Source of the DNA: a virus
Virus genome (UHGV): UHGV-0189653
DNA length: 51,563 nucleotides
Direction: 5' to 3' (one strand)
Shown here: positions 3,520 through 42,308 of the stretch, one piece after another
Position numbering within the stretch: the first letter of the stretch is position 1
Layout: the number at the start of each line of letters is the position of its first letter
The notes under the pieces: model-generated
Told to the model about the DNA's origin: nothing
What the model saw: the letters and a program-made list of their open reading frames with translations, nothing else
The model's database searches: none
Translations under genes and position numbers: made by a program

Positions 3520-6500
3520 ATGGCAGAGCAAACCTCGCGTCTCGCAATAATTATTGATAGCACTGGAGCAAAAAATAATGCTGACAATCTGACCTCCTCA
3601 TTAGTCAAAATGACGCAGGCCGGGGAAACTGCTGCAAATAGCGCAGGGAAAGTGACTAAGGCAACAGAAGATGAGAAGAACGCGCTCGCAAAATTAAAAG
3701 CAGCTATTGATCCAGTTGGTGCCGCAATTGATACTGTCGGTCGACGCTATTCTGAATTAAAGAAATTTTTCGATAAAGGGCTTATTGATAAAGAAGAATA
3801 TGAATTTCTTGTCCGTAAACTTAATGAAACCACAGAGGAATTGAGCGGGGTTGCGCAAGCGCAGAGAGAAGCCGAGAAGGCCGGAAAACTTGCTGCCGCC
3901 CAGCAGGAATCGCAGGCTCAGGCCTTTCAAAGAATGCTGGACAAGATCGACCCTCTGGTTGCGGCGCTAAGAAATCTTGAACAACAGCAGGATGAACTTA
4001 ATGCTGCGTTTGCATCCGGGAAAATAAATGGTTCTCAGTTTGAGAATTATAGCCGAAAAATACAGGAAACACGGCGAGAGCTTACCGGAGAGGCTCAGGC
4101 AGAGCGAGAAGCAGCAAAAGCGCATGATGAACAGGTTGCTGCTTTGCAACGTCTGATTGCTCAACTTGACCCTGTCGGAACTGCTTTTAATCGTCTGGTA
4201 GAACAACAGAAACAGCTCAATGAAGCAAAAGCTAAGGGGATGCTCTCTCCTGAAATGTATGAGGAACTTTCTGGAAAACTTCGTGCTATGCGGAGTGAGC
4301 TTGAGGTTACTCAATCTCAATTAAGCAAAACCGGAATGTCGGCAAAACAAACGGCTTTTGCTATGCGCATGTTGCCTGCACAAATGACGGATATTGTTGT
4401 TGGGTTGTCCACTGGTCAGTCGCCTTTTATGGTGTTAATGCAGCAGGGCGGCCAGCTAAAAGATATGTTCGGTGGGATTGGCCCGGCGATCAAAGGTGTT
4501 GGTTCTTATGTGCTGGGATTAATTAATCCTTTTACCCTGGCCGCAGCAGCCGTTGGCGTCTTAGGGCTGGCTTACTATAAAGGCTCTCAGGAGCAGGACG
4601 AATTTAATAAATCTCTTATTCTTACCGGAAATCAGTTGGGGACAACCAGCGGGCAATTGGCCGATATAGCTCAACGTGCCGGGAATGCGGCTGATTCGAC
4701 AACTGGCGCTGCGGCGGCAGTATTAAACCAGCTTGTGCGTTCGGGAAAGGTAGCGAGCAGTTCGCTGGAGCAAGTGACGACAGCGATAGTAAAAACGAGC
4801 GAAGTAACAGGAATATCAACCGAACAACTGGTTAATGACTTCAATGAAATTGCAAAGGATCCTGTCAGTGCCATATCAAAACTTAATGATCAGTACCATT
4901 TTCTGACAATTGCGACTTATAACCAGATTAAGGCGCTACAGGATGAAGGGAACCAGCAGGAGGCCGCCCGCATTGCGACAGAAGCATACTCATCCTCAAT
5001 GATCCAGCGCACCAACCAGATTAAAGAAAATCTTGGTTATCTTGAGACTGCATGGAAAGCTGTCGCAGACTCCGCAAAATGGGCATGGGATTCCATGCTG
5101 GATATTGGCCGTGAGGCCTCCCTTGATCAAAAAATCTCAGATGTTCTCCGTCAAATTGATGAAATAGAAAAAAATACCCGACCCGGAGTTTTCGGGTTAG
5201 GTGGCATTGGAGATGGCGGAGCTCAAAATAAAAGGCTGGCACGATTAAAGCAGCAATTGGGCGTACTTCAAGCAGAAAAAATTGCTCAGGACGTACTAAA
5301 TTCATCAATAAACGATTACAACAAGCGACAACAGGAAGGAATTGAACTCAGACAGAGAGCAGATGCCTTTTCAAAACAATATCAGACCCGGGAGCAGCAG
5401 AGAGCTAGTGAACTTGCAAAACTGGAAAAACTAAAGAGTCAGTATTCAAAGGAAGAATATAATAATCTTATCGCTCAAATAAATGAGCGTTATAAAGATC
5501 CAAAGCAACCAAAGGCGAAAGGTTATTCGGATGATGCTGCCCAACGAATGATTGATCATCTGAATCAACAGAATGCGTTACTAAGTTCACAAACTGAATT
5601 AACCGTTAAATTAAGTTCCTCTGAACAGGAACTGGTTAAGTGGCGTCAGCAGATTGCCGACCTGGAGTCACGACCGTCATCGAAATTAACCAAGGATCAG
5701 AAATCGCTTCTCTTACACCGGGAAGAAATAACCGCGTTGATGGAGAAAAATGTTGCGATTGAAAAAAATAACAGGCTAATCAAGGAATCCGCCGAAATAG
5801 CTGCATGGCGTGATTCATTGCAGGCTTCGATTGATAATCGTCAACAGGGGTATGATATTCAGATTGCTGGTTATGGGGTTGGCGATAAAAATCAGCAACG
5901 CCAGCAGGAATTACTGCGGATTGAACGTGAATATAACAATCAGCGTCTGCAACTTGAACGTGACTATGCAGATAAATCCCGTGGGATGTCAAATCATGTT
6001 TTTCAGGAGAAAATGCAGGCTCTGAATGATGCTCTGGAACGAGAAAAAGAAATTGTCAGACAGAAAAACGAGCAGCTCGATATTCAGGCAGGAGACTGGG
6101 TTAGTGGTGCCTCCCAGGGATTCAATAACTGGCTGGATGACACTAAGGATATCAGTGAGCAGATAAAATCAACCACGACTCAGATGTTTGATGGAATGAC
6201 CGATGCGCTGGGTGATTTTGTCACGACAGGCAAGGCAAATTTTCGTTCTTTCGCTACTTCCGTGATTTCGGATCTTAGTCGAATAGCATTAAAGGCTTCA
6301 ATTACTCGGATTTTCGACAGCATTAGTAACAGTTCTTCGGGGGGGATTTTAGGAACTATCGGGAGTGCTATTAGTAAATTTATTCCGAATGCAAAGGGCG
6401 GTGTTTATGAGTCTCCGTCATTGAACACGTATTCGAACGGTATTTATGATTCCCCGCAATTTTTTGCTTTTGCAAAAGGGGCTGGTGTTTTTGGTGAGGC

Positions 6501-35996: not shown

Positions 35997-36009
35997 AACC
36001 ACCTCCCAT

Positions 36010-36034
36010 AAAACATGCATTATAAATGCACCTT
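36010..36034 (-). promoter_or_regulatory. NsrR-like operator overlapping the promoter of the yeaR-like gene
   Basis: Minus-strand GGTGCATTTATAATGCATGTT: inverted repeat of the ATGCAT core resembling my recollection of the NsrR consensus; contains TATAAT; TTGACA 21 nt upstream. Confidence 0.45.
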
Positions 36035-36863
36035 TTTGAGGGTTATGTCAAGCTGTTATGAAACACATAATTGATATGTTGATTAGAGGAGAAGATAGAA
36101 TCAATATGGTTGTTTTTCGTATAACTATTTGTTTTACTTTTAGTTTGTGCATTCTGTGTGTTAGGAATAACTTATTAAAGTTTAACTAAAAAATCTCGAT
36201 ATAGTCCGCATAGATTACTGTTACTGAATCTTATTGTGTGCATTAGTTGTGTTCTGAAATTTCAATTTAATTACTTATGATATATTTTTAACGATAAATG
36301 TTTTCCGGGTGAAAGACAGTGGGGGATGAGATAAGCAATATATCATTAATCTTGATTATTTCCAGGATGCCTTTACTGTGTATATAAATAAATCATATAC
36401 GCATCAAATAATGTAAAGGCATCCTTTTAGATATATCTTATCAAATGTTAATGATTTGAGTGGGAAACATGATTCCAGAAACTAATCATGCGGCTACTTT
36501 ATAAAAATAATGCCCATATAAAACAGCCAGCGAAAAGGATTACGGATAAAAAAGGAGCGAGATGTGCATAGTTGTTATTTTCCATGTTTAACCACCTTAA
36601 ATAATTGATGATGACGGGATGTGCATCTGTAATGCTTTTGTTGAAATGTTATGATAAAAAAGAACTTTTTCATAACATTAAAATGTAATTTATCTAATCG
36701 TTTTTAATAATAAGTGTTGTATTTCTATCCTTGTATCAGCTATTTGATATGTAGTGTTTGTTCATGTTATGTGGAGCTTTACACCATAGCCAGTTTATTT
36801 ATACTTTATTCGTCAGCCTGAACAACTGGCATCTGCTGCACTGCGCCATCGAGAGATTGAGAA

Positions 36864-37463
36864 ATGGCGCATATACAACTGGTCAAACAAACCTCTTCTG
36901 GACTACTTCTCCCGGCGACGCCGGAGAGTTGCGATTTTTTGCATCAAATCAAAATAGGCGAGTGGATACACGCAGACTTTAAGCGTGTGCGTAACTACGC
37001 ATTCCACAAGCGTTTTTTCAAACTCCTGCAACTGGGATTCGATTACTGGACTCCGGTCGGTGGGGCGATCACGCCTCGCGAACGAAAGCTGGTTTCAGGA
37101 TTCGTTGATTACCTATGTGAATCAGTAGGCCGGGAACATACGCCAGCTCTGAGCGAAGCCGCAGAGCAATATCTGAATACAGTTGCGACACGCAGAACCC
37201 GGGATACGGCATTGCTAAAGTCGTTTGAGGCTTTCCGCGAGTGGGTAACCATTCAGGCCGGATTTTACACCGAGCATCTTTATCCTGATGGTAGCCATGG
37301 GCGTCGGGCGAAATCCATCGCTTTTGCGAATATGGACGAAACCGAGTTTCAGCAGGTTTATAAATCTGTTCTGAATGTGCTGTGGAACTGGATTCTGTTC
37401 CGTAAATTTTCCTCTCCGGAACAAGTCGAAAATGTGACCGCGCAGCTGCTGGAGTTTGCGTAA
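36864..37463 (+). CDS. nin-region phage protein (DUF1367-like)
   Basis: 199-aa ORF upstream of, and coupled to, the YbcO-like gene. Confidence 0.5.
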   Translation: MAHIQLVKQTSSGLLLPATPESCDFLHQIKIGEWIHADFKRVRNYAFHKRFFKLLQLGFDYWTPVGGAITPRERKLVSGFVDYLCESVGREHTPALSEAAEQYLNTVATRRTRDTALLKSFEAFREWVTIQAGFYTEHLYPDGSHGRRAKSIAFANMDETEFQQVYKSVLNVLWNWILFRKFSSPEQVENVTAQLLEFA

Positions 37464-37753
37464 TGGTGGATTTACGTAAAGCGGCGCGGGGGCAGATGTG
37501 CACCGTCAGAATTCCTGGCTACTGCAATCACGATCCGGAAACGTCTGTGCTGGCGCATTACCGACTGGCGGGAACGTGCGGAACAGCGACAAAACCACAC
37601 GATATGCAGGCGGCGATTGCCTGTAGCTCATGCCACGATCTAATCGACGGGCGGGTAAAAACCAGCGATTACACCAAAGAAGAATTACGCCTGATGCATG
37701 CAGAAGGTGTTTTTCGCACACAAGAAATCTGGAGAAAGGAGGGATATTTGTGA
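37463..37753 (+). CDS. YbcO-like DUF1364 protein (Cys/His-rich)
   Basis: 96-aa ORF with CxxxxC...H...CxxC pattern; ATGG overlap with upstream stop. Confidence 0.55.
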   Translation: MVDLRKAARGQMCTVRIPGYCNHDPETSVLAHYRLAGTCGTATKPHDMQAAIACSSCHDLIDGRVKTSDYTKEELRLMHAEGVFRTQEIWRKEGYL

Positions 37754-38292
37754 TTTACCCAACGAATACAGGAAAAAGCGGAGAACACCTTCGTCTCGCC
37801 ACGCTGGAAAGTGTCTGGATTCAGGGCAAACTGCGTATGTGGGGGCGCTGGTCGTATATTGGCGGTGGCAGGTCAGGAAATATGTTCAATCAGTTGTTGG
37901 CATCCAAAAAATTGACGAAAACAGCCATCAATGAAGCCCTGCGCAGAATGAAAAAAGCGGGAATAGAGAAAGCTGAGCTGGAAGCGTTTTTGCGAGAGAT
38001 GATCAACGGCAAGCAAAAGAGCTGGCTGGCGCATTGTACTGATGCAGAGGCGTTATGTATTGATCGAGTCATAAGTGAGGTGCTGGCAGAGCATCCTGGA
38101 TTGATTAGTGTCCTCCGGCAACGGTATGAAGGACGGGGGATGACTAAGCGCAAAATGGCTGAATTGCTAAATGATGCACATCCTGAGTGGTGTTTTAGCA
38201 CATGCGAAAAGCGAATTGCTAATTGGTTGGCTGTTGCTGAGTATGCCCTATATATTCCCATGCGAGAATCATTTGCTCAAAAAATAGCTTGA
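37750..38292 (+). CDS. Q: late gene antiterminator Q-like protein
   Basis: 180-aa product from GTG 37750 (RBS GGAGG at 37736-37740, GTGA overlap with upstream stop); WG-W motif region LRMWGRWSYIGG; position just upstream of hairpin and lysis cassette. Confidence 0.65.
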   Translation: MIYPTNTGKSGEHLRLATLESVWIQGKLRMWGRWSYIGGGRSGNMFNQLLASKKLTKTAINEALRRMKKAGIEKAELEAFLREMINGKQKSWLAHCTDAEALCIDRVISEVLAEHPGLISVLRQRYEGRGMTKRKMAELLNDAHPEWCFSTCEKRIANWLAVAEYALYIPMRESFAQKIA

Positions 38293-38375
38293 TTTTTTAC
38301 GCATAAACTGCTTCAATTCCGGTATGTTTCGCAAAGCTGTATCGCGAGGCGAACCAAGCGCATGAACTTTACCAG

Positions 38376-38402
38376 AACCCGCCATTGAGCGGGTTTTGTT
38401 GT
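38376..38402 (+). terminator. tR-prime-like intrinsic terminator downstream of Q
   Basis: aacccgc-cattga-gcgggtt (7-bp stem) followed by ttgttgttt. Confidence 0.55.
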
Positions 38403-38513
38403 TTCTGGTACTGGTGAACCTGATGTTTCATTTCTGGAGCGCGATTCCTGGCGGAATACCTAGAATCGAGACATTCTGGTAAAATTGTTTTCAGTACAGG
38501 ATGTGGAGGTGAG

Positions 38514-39083
38514 ATGAGAGAACTACCTAAAGATTATTTTTTAGGAGTAGATGATGAGCTCGTCGATTATCTTGAAAAACAAGGGGAAGAGACGATACGA
38601 GAGATTCATCTTTCTAACAAAACCAATGTTGAGAATGGATACAAACTTCTGAACATTCAGATTGTTGGAATTGGTTCATCTTTTTTATTGCTGACACAGA
38701 AAACTAATTTCGATTTTCTCACCGCCGGAATTACCACATTTACATTACTATGGACATGGTGCGCCATTTACTTGGTATGTACTGGTTTATCTGTGAAGGT
38801 TAGGGGCCTGATCAATGCCCCTCCTGATCATCTATATCATGAAAAATATAAGGATATGGAGCCCTCGAGCTTTAAAATATTCGCTGATGCAGGATATTTA
38901 GGACCTGATAAGTTATTGCCGCTTATACGAAGGTATCGCCTTGTTGACTTGAGTGATACAGCAAGAGAGTTACTGTTGGAAAATGAGAAAATCCGCACGA
39001 GTCTCGATAAAGCAAGGATGTATACCATCCTTGCTCCGGTAGCGGCGATGTTTATCTCGGCTGTTTTTTTATATGTTCAATGA
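38514..39083 (+). CDS. hypothetical membrane protein (moron between Q and holin)
   Basis: 189-aa ORF with RBS GGAGGTGAG; three hydrophobic segments; AT-rich codon usage; no family recognised. Confidence 0.5.
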   Translation: MRELPKDYFLGVDDELVDYLEKQGEETIREIHLSNKTNVENGYKLLNIQIVGIGSSFLLLTQKTNFDFLTAGITTFTLLWTWCAIYLVCTGLSVKVRGLINAPPDHLYHEKYKDMEPSSFKIFADAGYLGPDKLLPLIRRYRLVDLSDTARELLLENEKIRTSLDKARMYTILAPVAAMFISAVFLYVQ

Positions 39084-39213
39084 CTGAGTCGGCAGAATCT
39101 CCAACAAAAACACGACGTGTAGCAAAGTCTGTAGTACTTTGTGTTGGAGTTGGTTTTGGTGCCACGGGTTGCTGAGGTTTATTTTCACCTTGTGGTTTGT
39201 TTTTTTCAGACAT
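39052..39213 (-). CDS. small convergent ORF (53 aa), hypothetical
   Basis: Minus-strand ATG at 39213 preceded by AGAGGA; encodes MSEKNKPQGENKPQQPVAPKPTPTQSTTDFATRRVFVGDSADSVIEHIKKQPR; overlaps the 3-prime end of the membrane-protein gene by 32 nt. Confidence 0.3.
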   Translation of the reverse strand: MSEKNKPQGENKPQQPVAPKPTPTQSTTDFATRRVFVGDSADSVIEHIKKQPR

Positions 39214-39307
39214 AAAAATCCTCTTTGTTTGAATTGTTACTTTTGGCGATTTAACGATATCAAACACGAGTATATACCGCCAGAAGCTTAATCTGGCACT
39301 CCATCTG

Positions 39308-39332
39308 GCCCCGGCATGTCCCGGGGCTTTTT
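39308..39332 (+). terminator. intrinsic terminator between moron and holin
   Basis: gccccgg-catgtc-ccggggc perfect 7-bp stem followed by T5. Confidence 0.6.
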
Positions 39333-39430
39333 CGTTGTTAGGCTCTGGAAACATCCTCGACTTCTTGTTAGCAAGCCTGAGAGCCTGAATCTTACACTTA
39401 GCACCATCCGAACTCTCGGAGGTGAGGCTT

Positions 39431-39772
39431 ATGAAAATGCACAATGCCCCTCATTCCTGGCCTGACTTACTGGAACTCTTACAAAGTTGGTGGCGTGGAG
39501 ATACGCCGCTGGGTGCAGTGGTTATGTCAATTATTATGGCTGGTTTGCGCATTGCCTATTTTGGCGGTGGCGGCGGCTGGAAACGAAAAACGCTTGAGAT
39601 TCTGCTTTGTGGTGCTCTGACGCTGACCTTTGCATCCGCGCTTGAGTATGTCGGATGGCCTAAATCACTTTCTGTTGCCATTGGTGGTGGGGTGGGGCTG
39701 ATTGGTGTTGATGCTATTCGTGGTGCGGCAATGAGGGTCATCGGTAACAAGTTCGGTGCCCATAAGGAGTAA
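39431..39772 (+). CDS. S: holin with dual-start motif (MKM)
   Basis: 113-aa membrane protein immediately upstream of endolysin; RBS GGAGG at 39418-39422; Met-Lys-Met start as in lambda S. Confidence 0.75.
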   Translation: MKMHNAPHSWPDLLELLQSWWRGDTPLGAVVMSIIMAGLRIAYFGGGGGWKRKTLEILLCGALTLTFASALEYVGWPKSLSVAIGGGVGLIGVDAIRGAAMRVIGNKFGAHKE

Positions 39773-39775
39773 TTA

Positions 39776-40252
39776 ATGCAGACACTTAATTCCCAGCGTA
39801 AAGCTTTCCTTGATATGGTGGCATGGTCAGAAGGAACAGATAACGGACGGCAGAAAACCAGAAATCACGGTTATGATGTTATTGTCGGTGGCGAACTGTT
39901 CACTGATTACTCCGATCACCCCCGCAAACTTGTCACGCTAAATCCGAAACTCAAATCAACAGCCGCTGGACGTTACCAGCTTCTTTCACGCTGGTGGGAT
40001 GCCTACCGCAAGCAACTTGGCCTGAAAGATTTTTCTCCAGAAAGTCAGGATGCTGTAGCGCTGCAGCAGATTAAAGAGCGTGGCGCTTTGCCGATGATTG
40101 ATCGCGGTGATATCCGTCAGGCTATCGACCGTTGCAGCAATATATGGGCTTCACTGCCGGGCGCTGGTTATGGTCAGTTCGAGCATAAGGCTGACAGTCT
40201 GATTGCAAAATTCAAAGAAGCTGGCGGAACGGTCAGAGAGATTGAGGTATGA
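39776..40252 (+). CDS. R: endolysin R (lytic transglycosylase)
   Basis: 158-aa ORF with [42 protein letters not shown], matching lambda R. Confidence 0.95.
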
Positions 40253-40713
40253 GCAGAGTAACCGCGATTATCTCCGCTCTGGTTATCTGCATCGTCGTCT
40301 GCCTGTCATGGGGTGTTAATCATTACCGTGATAACGCCATCGCCTACAAAGAACAGCGCGACAAAAATGCCAGAGAACTGAAGCTGGCGAACGCGGCAAT
40401 TACTGACATGCAGATGCGTCAGCGTGATGTTGCTGCGCTCGATGCAAAATACACGAAGGAGTTAGCTGATGCGAAAGCTGAAAATGATGCTCTGCGTGAT
40501 GATGTTGCCGCTGGTCGTCGTCGGTTGCACATCAAAGCAGTCTGTCAGTCAGTGCGTGAAGCCACCACCGCCTCCGGCGTGGATAATGCAGCCTCCCCCC
40601 GACTGGCAGACACCGCTGAACGGGATTATTTCACCCTCCGGGAACGACTGGTAATGATGCAGGCCCAACTTGAAGGTGCTCAGCAATACATAACCGAGCA
40701 GTGTTTAAAGTAA
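40249..40713 (+). CDS. Rz: i-spanin Rz
   Basis: 154-aa [24 protein letters not shown]... with N-terminal TM and coiled coil; lambda Rz-like. Confidence 0.9.
40469..40654 (+). CDS. Rz1: o-spanin Rz1 lipoprotein (embedded in Rz, +1 frame)
   Basis: 61-aa ORF with lipobox (LVVVGC) and proline-rich [15 protein letters not shown], matching lambda Rz1. Confidence 0.85.
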
Positions 40714-40850
40714 AATCTTAACTACAATATGATTCATTTTGATGATTGTTTCATAAGGAACAGTGAAGTAAGATCTAAGAGGAGTTAAATTTTATACAGT
40801 ATAATCATAATATTGCAGCAAGGTGGTTATAATTGAAAGAATATTTAGAT

Positions 40851-42308
40851 ATGAATACATCTCATGTAAGAGTTGTTACTCATATGTGTGGGTTCCTGGT
40901 TTGGCTCTATAGTCTTTCAATGTTGCCACCAATGGTTGTAGCATTGTTTTATAAAGAAAAAAGCCTGTTCGTTTTCTTTATAACTTTCGTTATATTTTTT
41001 TGCATTGGTGGCGGAGCGTGGTATACAACTAAGAAATCTGGCATTCAATTACGTACCCGTGATGGGTTTATTATAATTGTAATGTTTTGGATTTTGTTTT
41101 CTGTTATTAGTGCATTCCCTTTATGGATTGACTCAGAACTTAATTTAACGTTCATTGATGCTCTGTTTGAAGGGGTTTCTGGAATAACAACAACAGGAGC
41201 AACTGTAATTGATGATGTTAGTTCATTACCTCGGGCATATTTGTACTATCGGTCACAGTTAAATTTTATAGGTGGTTTAGGAGTTATTGTTCTGGCGGTT
41301 GCTGTATTGCCATTATTGGGTATTGGTGGTGCAAAGCTTTATCAGTCAGAAATGCCGGGGCCATTTAAGGATGACAAACTCACTCCCCGCCTGGCCGATA
41401 CGTCACGGACACTGTGGATAACTTATTCTTTATTAGGTATTGCTTGTATTGTCTGTTATAGACTTGCAGGAATGCCTTTGTTTGATGCTATTTGTCACGG
41501 GATTTCCACAGTTTCGCTTGGTGGTTTCTCAACTCATAGCGAGAGTATCGGATATTTTAATAACTATTTGGTTGAGCTGGTGGCTGGTTCTTTTTCCCTG
41601 CTATCGGCTTTCAACTTCACTCTTTGGTATATTGTTATTAGCAGGAAAACGATAAAACCTTTAATCAGAGATATTGAACTTCGTTTCTTTCTGTTAATAG
41701 CCTTAGGGGTGATCATTGTTACCTCTTTCCAGGTCTGGCATATAGGTATGTATGACTTGCATGGAAGTTTTATTCATTCGTTTTTTCTTGCCAGCTCCAT
41801 GCTCACTGATAATGGTTTAGCTACGCAGGATTATGCAAGTTGGCCCACGCACACGATAGTGTTTTTGCTGTTGTCAAGTTTCTTTGGGGGATGTATAGGT
41901 TCAACTTGTGGTGGAATTAAGTCACTTCGATTTCTTATACTTTTCAAACAAAGCAAACACGAGATAAATCAGCTTTCTCATCCCAGAGCGTTGTTGAGTG
42001 TAAATGTAGGAGGGAAGATAGTTACAGATCGTGTAATGAGGTCTGTATGGAGTTTCTTTTTTCTTTATACTCTCTTCACGGTGTTTTTTATACTGGTGTT
42101 AAATGGTATGGGATATGATTTTCTTACATCATTTGCAACAGTGGCTGCATGTATTAATAATATGGGATTAGGTTTTGGGGCTACTGCATCGTCATTCGGA
42201 GTGCTTAATGACATTGCAAAATGTTTAATGTGCATAGCTATGATTCTTGGTCGCCTTGAAATTTATCCTGTTATTATATTGTTTTCAGGTTTTTTTTGGC
42301 GCTCCTAA
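40851..42308 (+). CDS. trkG: TrkH-family potassium uptake protein TrkG
   Basis: 485-aa polytopic membrane protein from ATG 40851 (MNTSHVRVVTHMCGFLVW...); AT-rich gene and flanks. Confidence 0.85.
   Translation: MNTSHVRVVTHMCGFLVWLYSLSMLPPMVVALFYKEKSLFVFFITFVIFFCIGGGAWYTTKKSGIQLRTRDGFIIIVMFWILFSVISAFPLWIDSELNLTFIDALFEGVSGITTTGATVIDDVSSLPRAYLYYRSQLNFIGGLGVIVLAVAVLPLLGIGGAKLYQSEMPGPFKDDKLTPRLADTSRTLWITYSLLGIACIVCYRLAGMPLFDAICHGISTVSLGGFSTHSESIGYFNNYLVELVAGSFSLLSAFNFTLWYIVISRKTIKPLIRDIELRFFLLIALGVIIVTSFQVWHIGMYDLHGSFIHSFFLASSMLTDNGLATQDYASWPTHTIVFLLLSSFFGGCIGSTCGGIKSLRFLILFKQSKHEINQLSHPRALLSVNVGGKIVTDRVMRSVWSFFFLYTLFTVFFILVLNGMGYDFLTSFATVAACINNMGLGFGATASSFGVLNDIAKCLMCIAMILGRLEIYPVIILFSGFFWRS

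Follow-up and report, generated by a model that had tools for sequence, protein, structure and literature searches.

In the E. coli prophage analysed here (UHGV-0189653; the window is the whole stretch of 51,563 nucleotides), the late-gene regulator Q is separated from the lysis genes by a two-gene cassette. Its genes, one for a 189-aa membrane protein and one, on the opposite strand, for a 53-aa hydrophilic protein, are real and always occur as a pair, and the cassette, extending over approximately 38410-39335, is a classical moron. A feature newly described here is a covarying stem-loop (39011-39035) within the coding sequence of the 189-aa protein, which is better paired on the minus strand. 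We tentatively propose that the cassette is a two-component inner-membrane exclusion or abortive-infection module, the component ratio of which would be shifted by Q-driven read-through, and we consider anti-phage protection of the lysogen its most likely role. The features of the locus are compiled in Table 1.

Table 1. Features of the cassette and its immediate surroundings, in window positions
Feature	Position	Strand	Evidence
Q-like late antiterminator gene (DUF1133), context outside the cassette	37750..38292	+	Pfam, PHROG
Q-module leader with intrinsic terminator (tR'-like), left edge of the cargo site	38293..38405	+	scan, fold
Putative promoter of the 189-aa gene, extended -10 TGGTAAAAT	38477..38485	+	conservation
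189-aa inner-membrane protein gene, three long helices	38514..39083	+	homologues, dN/dS, AlphaFold2, hydropathy, phrog_11870
Conserved stem-loop of 9 bp within the coding sequence of the 189-aa protein	39011..39035	-	covariation, fold
53-aa hydrophilic protein gene	39052..39213	-	co-occurrence, open frame, dN/dS, homologues, AlphaFold2
Candidate promoter of the small gene, TTGATA-N18-TAACAA	39234..39263	-	conserved motif
Small hairpin GCCAGA-N7-TCTGGC, flanked by the 18-nt motif and the cassette terminator	39279..39297		fold, diverged loci
Cassette intrinsic terminator	39307..39333	+	scan, fold, conservation
Lambda-family holin gene, opening the lysis cassette, context	39431..39772	+	Phage_holin_3_1 1.9e-27 (Pfam), RefSeq annotation

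Two convergent protein-coding genes

An earlier reading of this DNA (the initial annotation) had described two overlapping ORFs, the smaller one with a good ribosome-binding site, and all of its stated features were found where it had placed them. Both ORFs are far above chance expectation. The 189-aa frame carries GGAGG 5 nt before its ATG, is represented by 104 homologue clusters across Enterobacterales, almost all of exactly 189 aa, and is under purifying selection (dN/dS ~0.10). The small frame has AGAGG upstream of its start, shares 32 nt (39052-39083) with the 189-aa gene and is represented by 85 homologue clusters with products of 47-53 aa. It could be argued that the minus-strand ORF is not translated and that its RNA alone acts as a cis-antisense regulator of the 189-aa gene, as the transcript would be able to pair over its entire length with the 3' part of the message for the 189-aa protein and a conserved RNA hairpin is present. 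We attach almost no probability to this explanation, because the small-gene frame is open in 70 of 70 cassettes, compared with 0-10 of 70 for the other five frames, because its dN/dS of ~0.23 holds outside the overlap too, and because its indels comprise whole codons while the start codon, the Shine-Dalgarno sequence and a C-terminal peptide motif are conserved. The 53-aa start given in the initial annotation is correct and the public 100-aa annotation is wrong; the longer PGAP start was rejected, being unconserved and running across the terminator.

The hydropathy profile of the 189-aa protein contains three hydrophobic segments (residues 44-61, 73-94 and 168-189), and its TM1 is Gly/Ser-rich (GIGSS). 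Structure prediction, which had been suggested as a check, yielded a helical AlphaFold2 model with helices 14-62, 68-92 and 134-188 (pLDDT 80.8), so that the earlier description as a three-helix membrane protein stands. The N-terminal and central parts of the protein are predicted to be cytoplasmic, and neither a signal peptide nor an enzyme domain or known virulence family was found (Pfam, NCBIfam). For the 53-aa protein, the corresponding model (pLDDT 66.7) contains a helix at residues 41-49 only. This protein is Pro/Lys/Gln-rich and mostly disordered, with a basic tail, and is hydrophilic throughout, the maximal Kyte-Doolittle hydropathy over 17 residues being 0.24; its conserved C-terminal motif reads DF(S/A/T)xxRxxVGDSA(D/E).

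The earlier statement that the membrane protein has no recognisable family is borne out for Pfam, NCBIfam and PADLOC, in which neither protein found a match (Pfam and PADLOC searched to E 1), but does not hold for PHROG, where the two proteins fall into families of unknown function (phrog_11870, 6e-108, for the 189-aa protein; phrog_14506, 6e-33, for the 53-aa protein). The Pfam search to E 1 also gave no match of either protein to the RexB, RexA or SieB families. With tblastn against 50,697 phage records, the two proteins retrieved only five and four records, respectively, which belong to four E. coli prophage-derived phages and one other; all of the products are hypothetical proteins, and no sequence similarity to any characterised phage protein was detected. 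No publication on either protein came up in literature searches using accessions, PHROG ids and topics, and a homology search with a broad alignment retrieved no Pfam-annotated relatives. Both proteins are thus far annotated merely as hypothetical, and the small one has been mis-annotated or missed.

Distant similarity became visible in an extended family of the 189-aa protein comprising 101 representatives, 59 members of which underlie the PADLOC match counts. The PADLOC model of the Pycsar effector PycTM was matched by 4 of the 59 (best 1.5e-8) and that of the CBASS '2TM effector' by two members (4e-5), although such matches can be inflated by hydrophobic helices. Two weakly matching relatives were identified individually, P0268 with PycTM (5.5e-4) and P0279 with 2TM (0.0022). 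The 189-aa protein of the window itself has no PycTM match and no adjacent pyrimidine cyclase gene, and no cyclase, CD-NTase or other sensor gene adjoins the cassette in the approximately 95 loci examined.

Regulatory elements and a hairpin on the antisense strand

The gene upstream of the cassette is Q-like, with matches to Pfam DUF1133 (1.4e-107), to Phage_antitermQ (27.4 bits against a cutoff of 26) and to PHROG 753, 'anti-termination protein Q-like' (3.9e-79). It is followed by a leader and a terminator with a stem at 38373-38398 and a T-rich tail (fold -17.5 kcal/mol, z -4.1). The leader occurs in 733 E. coli genomes, mostly directly 3' of DUF1133, and about 500 of these genomes are without the cassette; in these, the match covers query positions 1-113/124 only, which places the end of the homology at 38397-38408. 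We therefore rejected the upstream terminator and leader as parts of the cassette, since they are far commoner than the cassette and track the DUF1133 gene. The initial annotation had described the two genes as bracketed by two terminators. Both sites were found, but the upstream one is the Q-module terminator present in the ~500 cassette-free genomes, so that the bracket consists of tR' and the moron's own terminator. A scan of 2.2 kb returned exactly these two plus-strand sites, a count that is not above chance (1.6 expected), and they are considered real because they are conserved, not because of their number. The cassette terminator consists of a stem at 39307-39328 followed by TTTTT, within a two-hairpin region folding at -25.5 kcal/mol (z -2.9), and 39 of 50 distinct cassettes have a plus-strand terminator, with a different stem sequence, past the small gene in the plus-strand direction. 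An Rfam scan of 36000-41000 (E up to 1) gave no match, and no tRNAs were found in the window.

The extended -10 element TGGTAAAAT upstream of the 189-aa gene, which has no conserved -35 partner, would place transcription initiation near 38492. Of 46 distinct upstream regions, 36 show its consensus, (G/A)(G/A)TAA(A/G)AT, ~30-40 nt ahead of the start codon and usually after cattca; the consensus is kept across loci sharing only 48-60% protein identity, with a terminator preceding each. We infer from this conservation that the element is a promoter; a conserved promoter of its own behind a terminator suggests that the 189-aa gene is built for expression in the lysogen too. The candidate promoter of the small gene holds a conserved 18-nt motif, TGATATCGTTAAATCGCC (39245-39262); 22 of 34 distinct upstream regions carry the motif with no more than two mismatches, its end falling in most cases 28-32 nt ahead of the start codon. 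The -10 of this candidate promoter is weak and the consensus scan gave no call there, and the motif is a candidate for a promoter, an operator or an RNA element. In the small hairpin at 39279-39297, the stem is changed in diverged loci (GCCGC/GCGGC, GCTGC/GCGGC), with no clear strand asymmetry when judged by eye.

The stem-loop at 39011-39035 begins 17 nt past the stop codon of the small gene on the minus strand. Four of its nine pairs show two-sided changes, and 90% of the cells are paired, compared with 31-53% when the partner is slid; the covariation score was reached by none of 500 shuffles. Read in the minus sense, 96.1% of positions are paired and 24 of 31 sequences are perfect, whereas the plus sense reaches 90.0% and 12 of 31. 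The hairpin is selected on the antisense strand of the 189-aa coding sequence and forces rare AGG/AGA arginine codons. Only 2-5 U follow it, so it is not a canonical terminator, and it probably represents the 3' end, a stabiliser or a weak terminator of the small mRNA. If the small mRNA ends there, the overlap of both transcripts would be complete.

A portable pair in prophage late regions

The cassette is present in 223 of 5426 complete E. coli genomes (~4%) and also in prophages of Klebsiella, Citrobacter, Salmonella, Serratia, Yersinia, Proteus and others. A comparison of synteny in other prophages, as had been recommended, showed that it recurs at 89 loci, 74 of them in the Q/lysis region, mostly immediately before the holin gene, and eight between tail-chaperone and tape-measure genes. 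A P2-like context initially considered for one locus (L006) was rejected, as this locus is a Q-holin gap too. At least three unrelated Q families (PF06576/PF06530, PF03589, PF06323) precede the cassette at one locus or another, and the holins that follow it belong to at least five unrelated families. The genes next to it are mostly co-oriented with the 189-aa gene (79 of 88 upstream, 78 of 85 downstream); in the window, the plus strand carries the 189-aa gene together with the Q, holin and endolysin genes on either side of the cassette, and the minus strand carries the small gene. As the initial annotation had noted, the cassette is AT-rich, with a GC content of 0.37-0.44 compared with 0.48-0.52 in the flanks.

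Throughout this range the two genes remain together. The small gene adjoins every full-length 189-aa homologue parsed (89 loci), and the pair is convergent and overlapping in all cases, from 100% down to 42% identity, which upholds the earlier proposal of a two-component module. The divergences of the two proteins are tightly correlated (r = 0.91). Betaproteobacterial relatives located in tail modules likewise consist of a membrane gene, a convergent Pro-rich small ORF and a plus-strand terminator.

The position directly ahead of the holin in most of the 74 loci between Q and the lysis genes, together with the nature of the 189-aa protein as a small multi-helix membrane protein with a Gly/Ser-rich TM1, would fit an accessory lysis function in which the pair tunes the time of holin triggering, in the manner of an antiholin or a holin enhancer, without relation to other phages. 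We consider this improbable: the 189-aa protein has no Pfam match to any holin family, the partner holins span at least five unrelated families, and the eight tail-module loci and the Betaproteobacterial relatives are far from lysis genes. Moreover, the cassette's own terminator separates it from the true holin gene at 39431, its putative promoter is of the lysogen type, and sister prophages in which Q and the lysis genes are the same manage without it.

In such sister prophages, the same site holds other cargo (tRNAs, TerB, a SASA esterase). A sister prophage of O157 (L092) carries the DUF1367-DUF1364-DUF1133 array and leader followed by tRNAs, TerB and the esterase, and another prophage (L093) carries the same array and leader followed by tRNAs and essD, in both cases without the cassette. 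The cassette is hence present or absent between homologous neighbour genes. Its occurrence with several Q families, several holin families and in tail modules, together with its own -10 element, terminator and low GC content, identifies it as a classical moron, which agrees with the original designation as a moron in the Q-holin gap. As the site is a classical one for conversion genes such as stx, as the O157 sister prophage has TerB and the esterase there and as the module appears to have an independent promoter, the cassette might encode a lysogenic-conversion factor serving host physiology (envelope, stress tolerance or colonisation) rather than acting on phages. To this we give little credence, given that signal peptides, enzyme domains and known virulence families are all absent, that the cassette is spread over many Enterobacterales and soil Betaproteobacteria but always in prophages, which points to a phage-centred rather than a host-niche function, and that the elaborate antisense design would be left unexplained.

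Proposed function and comparison with known systems

Our tentative assignment to the exclusion/abortive-infection class, which the initial annotation had suggested next to a conversion factor and which is still the most plausible one, is circumstantial and draws on the location in a prophage hot-spot, the distant similarity to Pycsar and CBASS effectors and an architecture resembling tai/ati of phi80. We envisage that (i) in the lysogen, a -35-independent promoter of its own would drive the 189-aa gene, with the transcript ending at 39307-39333, so that the cassette terminator would stop it past the promoter of the small gene and shield the lysis genes; (ii) the small gene would be transcribed convergently up to the stem-loop within the 189-aa coding sequence, its mRNA being antisense over its whole length to the 3' part of the 189-aa message, which would couple the two expression levels; (iii) both proteins would act jointly at the inner membrane, the 189-aa protein, with its three membrane helices and a predicted cytoplasmic helical bundle, as the effector, disturbing the membrane or preventing entry, and the 53-aa protein as a disordered cytoplasmic partner that would be limiting and regulatory, either an activator/sensor or an inhibitor; (iv) upon induction, Q-antiterminated late transcription, the promoter and terminator of which would lie just upstream of the cargo site, would cross tR', the cassette and the cassette terminator into the lysis genes, raising the 189-aa message and opposing the small gene, and thereby shift the protein ratio. 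We favour the view that this shift would keep the module from harming the lytic growth of the phage itself. Such a ratio logic would resemble the excess of RexB over RexA in lambda or the lowering of tai by Q in phi80. In lambda, extra lytic transcription of the membrane component (pLit/rexB) would change the Rex ratio.

The same arrangement could be read as a toxin-antitoxin pair, in which the 189-aa protein would be a toxic pore or depolariser and the labile 53-aa protein, together with antisense pairing, its antitoxin; host shut-off by an infecting phage or loss of the prophage would stop antitoxin synthesis and free the toxin. The small partner is disordered like many antitoxins, the apparently fully overlapping convergent transcripts suggest that a tight expression ratio matters, and relatives match membrane-disrupting effector models. 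The 189-aa gene is, in addition, disrupted far more often than the small gene in public data (an IS-type junction with 102 member sequences, P0002, and a frameshift with 13 members, P0033, as against 1-7 members each for the disrupted small genes P0187-P0189 and P0109), although a target 3.5 times as large and clonal expansion confound this asymmetry. We nevertheless consider this explanation unlikely, because Q-driven late transcription running through the cassette would increase the toxin and shut off the antitoxin, risking premature membrane collapse in the lytic cycle, and yet the cassette sits in sense orientation within late operons. At one locus (L017) the small gene is frameshifted beside an intact 189-aa gene, although a homopolymer sequencing error is possible there. 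Neither established type fits the pair. Type I systems (hok/sok; ralR/ralA of Rac) share with it convergent or overlapping complementary transcripts, stem-loops in the overlap and a prophage locus, but their small protein is a hydrophobic toxin and their antisense partner is non-coding, whereas here the small protein is hydrophilic and conserved and the large antisense partner is a conserved protein-coding mRNA for a membrane protein. Type II is at odds with the convergent genes, which share no operon and are not co-transcribed, and no match to a known toxin or antitoxin family was found.

The closest architectural parallel concerns phi80. The phi80 lysogen expresses a defence gene that is oriented against the Q-driven late operon, and Q expression lowers the protein of this gene (PMC11364771). 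This 'noncontiguous operon', TaiEcA/AtiEcA, likewise combines an antisense and a sense partner at a prophage moron locus (PMC11364771). In our cassette, too, one gene runs against and its partner runs with the Q-driven late operon, the Q read-through being assumed. One could accordingly imagine a defence with self-immunity of the phi80 Tai/Ati or BstA/aba type, in which the small protein would be the anti-phage factor made by the lysogen and the 189-aa protein, produced in bulk from the late transcript, would neutralise it and permit the phage's own lytic cycle. The strands match phi80 (antisense for defence, sense for counter-defence, Q lowering the defence protein), and the tightly coupled divergences of the two proteins agree as well. 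The chance of this being correct appears slim, however, as a lysogen promoter for the 189-aa gene would be needless for pure counter-defence, a disordered protein of 50 aa would be unusual as a stand-alone defence effector, and neither protein is detectably similar to TaiEcA, AtiEcA or proteins of other characterised phages (tblastn, 50,697 phage records). In phi80, the large antisense gene provides the defence and the small sense gene the antidote, both being soluble (PMC11364771); in the cassette the sizes are reversed, the sense gene has its own putative promoter, and the sense protein is located in the membrane.

Returning to the exclusion or abortive-infection module, a bolder version of it, which we regard as conceivable but doubtful, is that the cassette is the first member of a widespread and ancient class of two-component prophage immunity that has gone unrecognised, consisting of a three-helix effector and a convergent, disordered, Pro-rich peptide of ~50 residues. 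The effector could then, just as doubtfully, be remotely akin to the transmembrane effectors of cyclic-nucleotide defence, with the peptide replacing the nucleotide signal, and, with no greater confidence, the peptide/effector ratio might be set by the overlapping transcripts and flipped by Q, providing self-immunity. If this design is true, its conservation between Enterobacterales and Betaproteobacteria would mean that the module is ancient. Should the cassette be anti-phage, it would represent a membrane-effector system with a peptide partner that is undetected by current defence finders (PADLOC), and it would bear on the host range of therapeutic phages in clinical Enterobacterales. Whatever the function, the locus offers a natural case of two protein-coding genes with apparently fully overlapping convergent mRNAs, of a hairpin under selection on the strand opposite to a coding sequence, and of a unit presumably expressed in the lysogen inside a Q-antiterminated operon.

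Among systems with membrane components, PycTM (Pycsar) and 2TM (CBASS) effectors are similarly short and have an N-terminal cytoplasmic helical part followed by a membrane helical hairpin, to which the 189-aa family adds a third, C-terminal helix and a small protein partner. RexA/RexB of lambda is not homologous to the cassette, and its two genes run in one direction within the immunity region; RexA is a folded protein of 279 aa, as opposed to the disordered peptide of 50 aa here, and RexB has four helices. Nevertheless, Rex also pairs a small polytopic membrane protein with a cytoplasmic partner in a prophage. The superinfection-exclusion moron gp15 of HK97 is a single gene with no counterpart of the convergent overlapping partner or the internal RNA hairpin, but it too is an inner-membrane prophage product, and a subgroup of the family described here occupies the gap of gene 15 between tail-chaperone and tape-measure genes. 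In its general organisation, the cassette corresponds to the lambdoid morons as defined by Hendrix and Juhala, that is, an extra unit of lower GC content between late genes, with a terminator and, as we predict, a promoter of its own.

A portable unit downstream of the Q module

The initial annotation described the interval between the Q-like antiterminator and the holin gene of this E. coli Rac-like lambdoid prophage (trkG starts at 40833) as an AT-rich moron bracketed by two terminators. The 189-aa and 53-aa ORFs, their 32-nt overlap and two terminator-like plus-strand sites (terminator scan, folding) are all present, and the lower GC content was upheld by measurement. The bracketing holds in part: both sites exist, but the first belongs to the Q module and not to the cassette, the two-gene unit at about 38410-39335. 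The finding is real, and its organisation is better than the initial annotation could see.

Table. Features of the Q-holin interval and its surroundings
Feature	Coordinates (strand)	Details
DUF1367 gene	36864-37463	
YbcO/DUF1364 gene	37463-37753	
Q-like antiterminator gene, DUF1133 family	37750-38292	
Candidate late (pR'-type) promoter of DUF1133 Q module	38227-38256	inside Q 3' end; TTGGCT-N18-TATATT, found by scan
Candidate late (pR'-type) promoter of DUF1133 Q module	38289-38317	directly 3' of Q stop codon; TTGATT-N17-TTCAAT, read by eye
Leader and first terminator	38293-38405	outside cassette; leader common to 733 E. coli genomes, usually directly 3' of DUF1133 gene
Extended -10 of 189-aa gene	38477-38485 (+)	consensus cattcaGGTAAAAT, window TGGTAAAAT; ~30-40 nt 5' of start
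Membrane gene, 189 aa	38514-39083 (+)	
Coding-sequence hairpin	39011-39035	codons 167-174 of membrane gene; 9-bp stem, 7-nt loop; nearly all loci
Small gene, 53 aa	39213..39052 (-)	
Lambda-family holin gene	39431-39772	followed by GH24 endolysin, Rz/Rz1

Homology to the leader ends at 38397-38408 in about 500 of the 733 genomes, and other cargo lies beyond it: tRNA-Ile, tRNA-Arg, TerB, DUF3927 and a SASA esterase in an O157:H7 prophage, and two tRNAs and essD in strain ET82. We therefore assign the first terminator to the Q module as its tR'-type terminator, which places the start of the cargo site just 3' of it and rules out the leader and first terminator as parts of the cassette. Where the leader does not adjoin Q, it begins at 38295.

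The same two-gene layout recurs in other prophages. Of 89 loci gathered (9 from reference genomes, 80 from viral contigs), 74 are located in the Q/lysis region, next to Q genes of three unrelated families (DUF1133/PF06530, PF03589, PF06323) and holins of five (lambda S, P21 S, HP1-type, holin_8 with 3_7, LydA). Eight others belong to tail modules, where they are flanked on one side by tail-assembly chaperones (or Rha/KilA-N morons) and on the other by the tape-measure gene; this is the hot spot that holds the gp15 moron in HK97. The orientation is nearly always that of the late genes. On this comparative evidence the cassette is portable, and with sister prophages carrying other cargo after the same leader, its description as a moron stands.

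E. coli LR-46 carries an identical stretch around the cassette, with both ORFs listed as hypothetical proteins in RefSeq; its Rz/Rz1 genes, intact in the window (40249-40713), are split by an IS3 element (L001, 8050-9716), although the two are otherwise identical across the cassette. In some prophages (L002, 4218-4799; L014; L035), an ORF6N-domain gene sits between Q and a second leader/terminator copy preceding the cassette, giving two terminator-bounded cargo units in series in the late region. The Actinobacillus host label of L002 (PP818812.1, 'Actinobacillus phage vB_Apl-pPE4') looks doubtful, given its E. coli-type DUF1367-DUF1364-Q array, hok, TerB and a leader near-identical to those of E. 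coli prophages. In a Serratia prophage (L006, ~3750-3940), a small Ogr/Delta-like zinc-finger ORF (CxxC...CxxC) ends directly 5' of the cassette, replacing the usual terminator.

Two conserved genes and their candidate signals

At each locus whose homologue is full-length, tblastn places the small protein directly downstream of the membrane gene, in convergent orientation. Automatic parsing of 75 distinct cassettes recovered it in 70 as a 47-64 aa ORF that overlaps the membrane gene by 20-35 nt; the small-gene frame is open in all 70, the other five in 0-10. The dN/dS is ~0.10 for the membrane gene and ~0.23 for the small gene, outside the overlap too, and a start codon equivalent to 39213 is kept across loci with its Shine-Dalgarno sequence. 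By these sequence criteria both ORFs are genes and, given the conserved start, the PGAP start at 39354 is wrong. That 100-aa form (WP_001328752.1; extension 39214-39354 (-)) reads through the plus-strand terminator, and the comparative data back the 53-aa form only, also over the 71-aa form of PHROG 14506.

Homologues of the 189-aa protein form 104 clusters, almost all of exactly 189 aa, with identity down to 42%, in Klebsiella, Citrobacter, Salmonella, Serratia, Yersinia, Proteus, Providencia, Morganella and Pantoea; the 85 clusters of the small protein, all hypothetical, match this range. The divergences of the two are tightly correlated (r = 0.91), the peptide evolving ~1.3 times faster. 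The N-terminal half of the peptide is variable and rich in Pro, Lys and Gln; conservation centres on the motif DF(S/A/T)xxRxxVGDSA(D/E), and the tail is basic. Except for a short C-terminal helix, the peptide is predicted to be disordered. An A7 run at 39200-39206 (T7 on the plus strand) spans its codons 3-5; in viral contig L017 the run is one base shorter, frameshifting the small gene beside an intact 189-aa gene, which could reflect slippage, phase variation or sequencing error.

The extended -10 is kept in 36 of 46 distinct upstream regions, always with a terminator 5' of it and with no conserved -35. Beyond the small-gene start follow, in plus-strand order, an 18-nt motif, a small hairpin whose stem sequence varies from locus to locus, and a plus-strand terminator (39 of 50 distinct regions under strict criteria), also with differing stems. 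The motif, TGATATCGTTAAATCGCC on the minus strand, is kept in its sequence (at most two mismatches in 22 of 34 distinct regions) and falls on that strand within a possible TTGATA-N18-TAACAA promoter with a weak -10; it is a candidate promoter, operator or RNA element. In L080 the right flank (hairpin and terminator) is identical to window 39262-39340 while its two genes are only ~58% identical, which puts a recombination joint at or next to this motif.

In the coding-sequence hairpin, both partners are exchanged in four of nine pairs (GC to AU); the share of paired cells is 90%, against 31-53% with the partner slid, and no shuffle reached the covariation score. The stem arginine codon is always AGG or AGA. 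Mismatches on the plus strand are C-A and A-C, becoming G-U on the opposite strand, and pairing is better in the minus sense (96.1% of cells, 24/31 perfect) than in the plus sense (90.0%, 12/31). The hairpin lies 17 nt past the small-gene stop codon, and a short pyrimidine/U stretch follows. We read it as a putative stem-loop at the 3' end of the small mRNA, where it would serve as a stabiliser or weak terminator; the small transcript (~39005 to ~39230) would then be complementary over its whole length to the 3' portion of the 189-aa message, which continues to 39333.

Protein relationships and disruptions

The predicted three-helix membrane topology agrees with three hydrophobic segments and with an AlphaFold2 model (pLDDT 80.8; long helices 14-62, 68-92 and 134-188), in which helices one and three would reach out of the membrane with their soluble parts. 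The positive-inside rule would place the N-terminus and residues 95-170 in the cytoplasm. As initially annotated, no family was recognisable: neither protein matches Pfam, NCBIfam or PADLOC, both belong to PHROGs of unknown function, and fold and PDB searches returned generic helical bundles only. A profile search of 1.84 billion representatives brought up 101 relatives that share this helix pattern and are 160-200 aa long. Among 59 of these scanned with PADLOC, four match PycTM (best 1.5e-8), two a second PycTM model and two the CBASS 2TM effector (4e-5); Pfam matches are marginal. Since the window protein itself has no PADLOC effector match, no cyclase is adjacent at any locus examined and the two individually identified matching relatives are both weak, kinship with nucleotide-activated membrane effectors is a lead, not membership. 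Prophage relatives from Pandoraea, Alcaligenes and Pigmentiphaga, in tail modules, repeat the design, with a small proline-rich ORF that converges on the membrane gene and overlaps it, and a plus-strand terminator beyond; a 42%-identical relative from an AT-rich genome, located before a holin, keeps the VGDS motif.

Among public sequences, disruptions of the membrane gene greatly outnumber those of the peptide gene, an excess confounded by gene length and clonality but suggestive of a cost. In cluster P0002 (102 member sequences) the 189-aa protein breaks off after residue 171, and in P0187 the small protein does so after residue 26; these two separate truncations share a foreign C-terminal peptide, 'DLTQQ', apparently the terminus of an insertion sequence that struck the cassette. 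The P0002 insertion point coincides with the conserved hairpin.

Proposed regulation and role

The comparative data reveal a mobile pair of genes, conserved as a unit with putative signals of its own and sense-oriented within Q-dependent late operons. We propose a hypothetical scheme in which (i) in the lysogen, each gene would be expressed from its own promoter; (ii) the flanking terminators would insulate the unit and silence the lysis genes; (iii) upon induction, Q-modified polymerase would pass both terminators; and (iv) read-through would lift the membrane-protein message and work against the small gene. Phi80 offers an experimental precedent for Q opposing a gene set against the late operon: such a defence gene is lysogen-expressed and its protein drops when Q is supplied (PMC11364771). 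A phage is not expected to poison itself late in its own lytic cycle; our preferred reading is therefore an exclusion or abortive-infection module of two components governed by their ratio, with membrane protein in excess of peptide as the safe state, and a plain toxin-antitoxin pair is the less likely alternative. The class, a moron, is already a known kind, and its role is probably prophage-encoded immunity. In the literature searched we found no description of the protein families, of the peptide partner, of convergent mRNAs with the complete overlap proposed here, or of the hairpin on the antisense strand of a coding sequence. The proposed safe state resembles that of lambda, where RexB is in excess over RexA.
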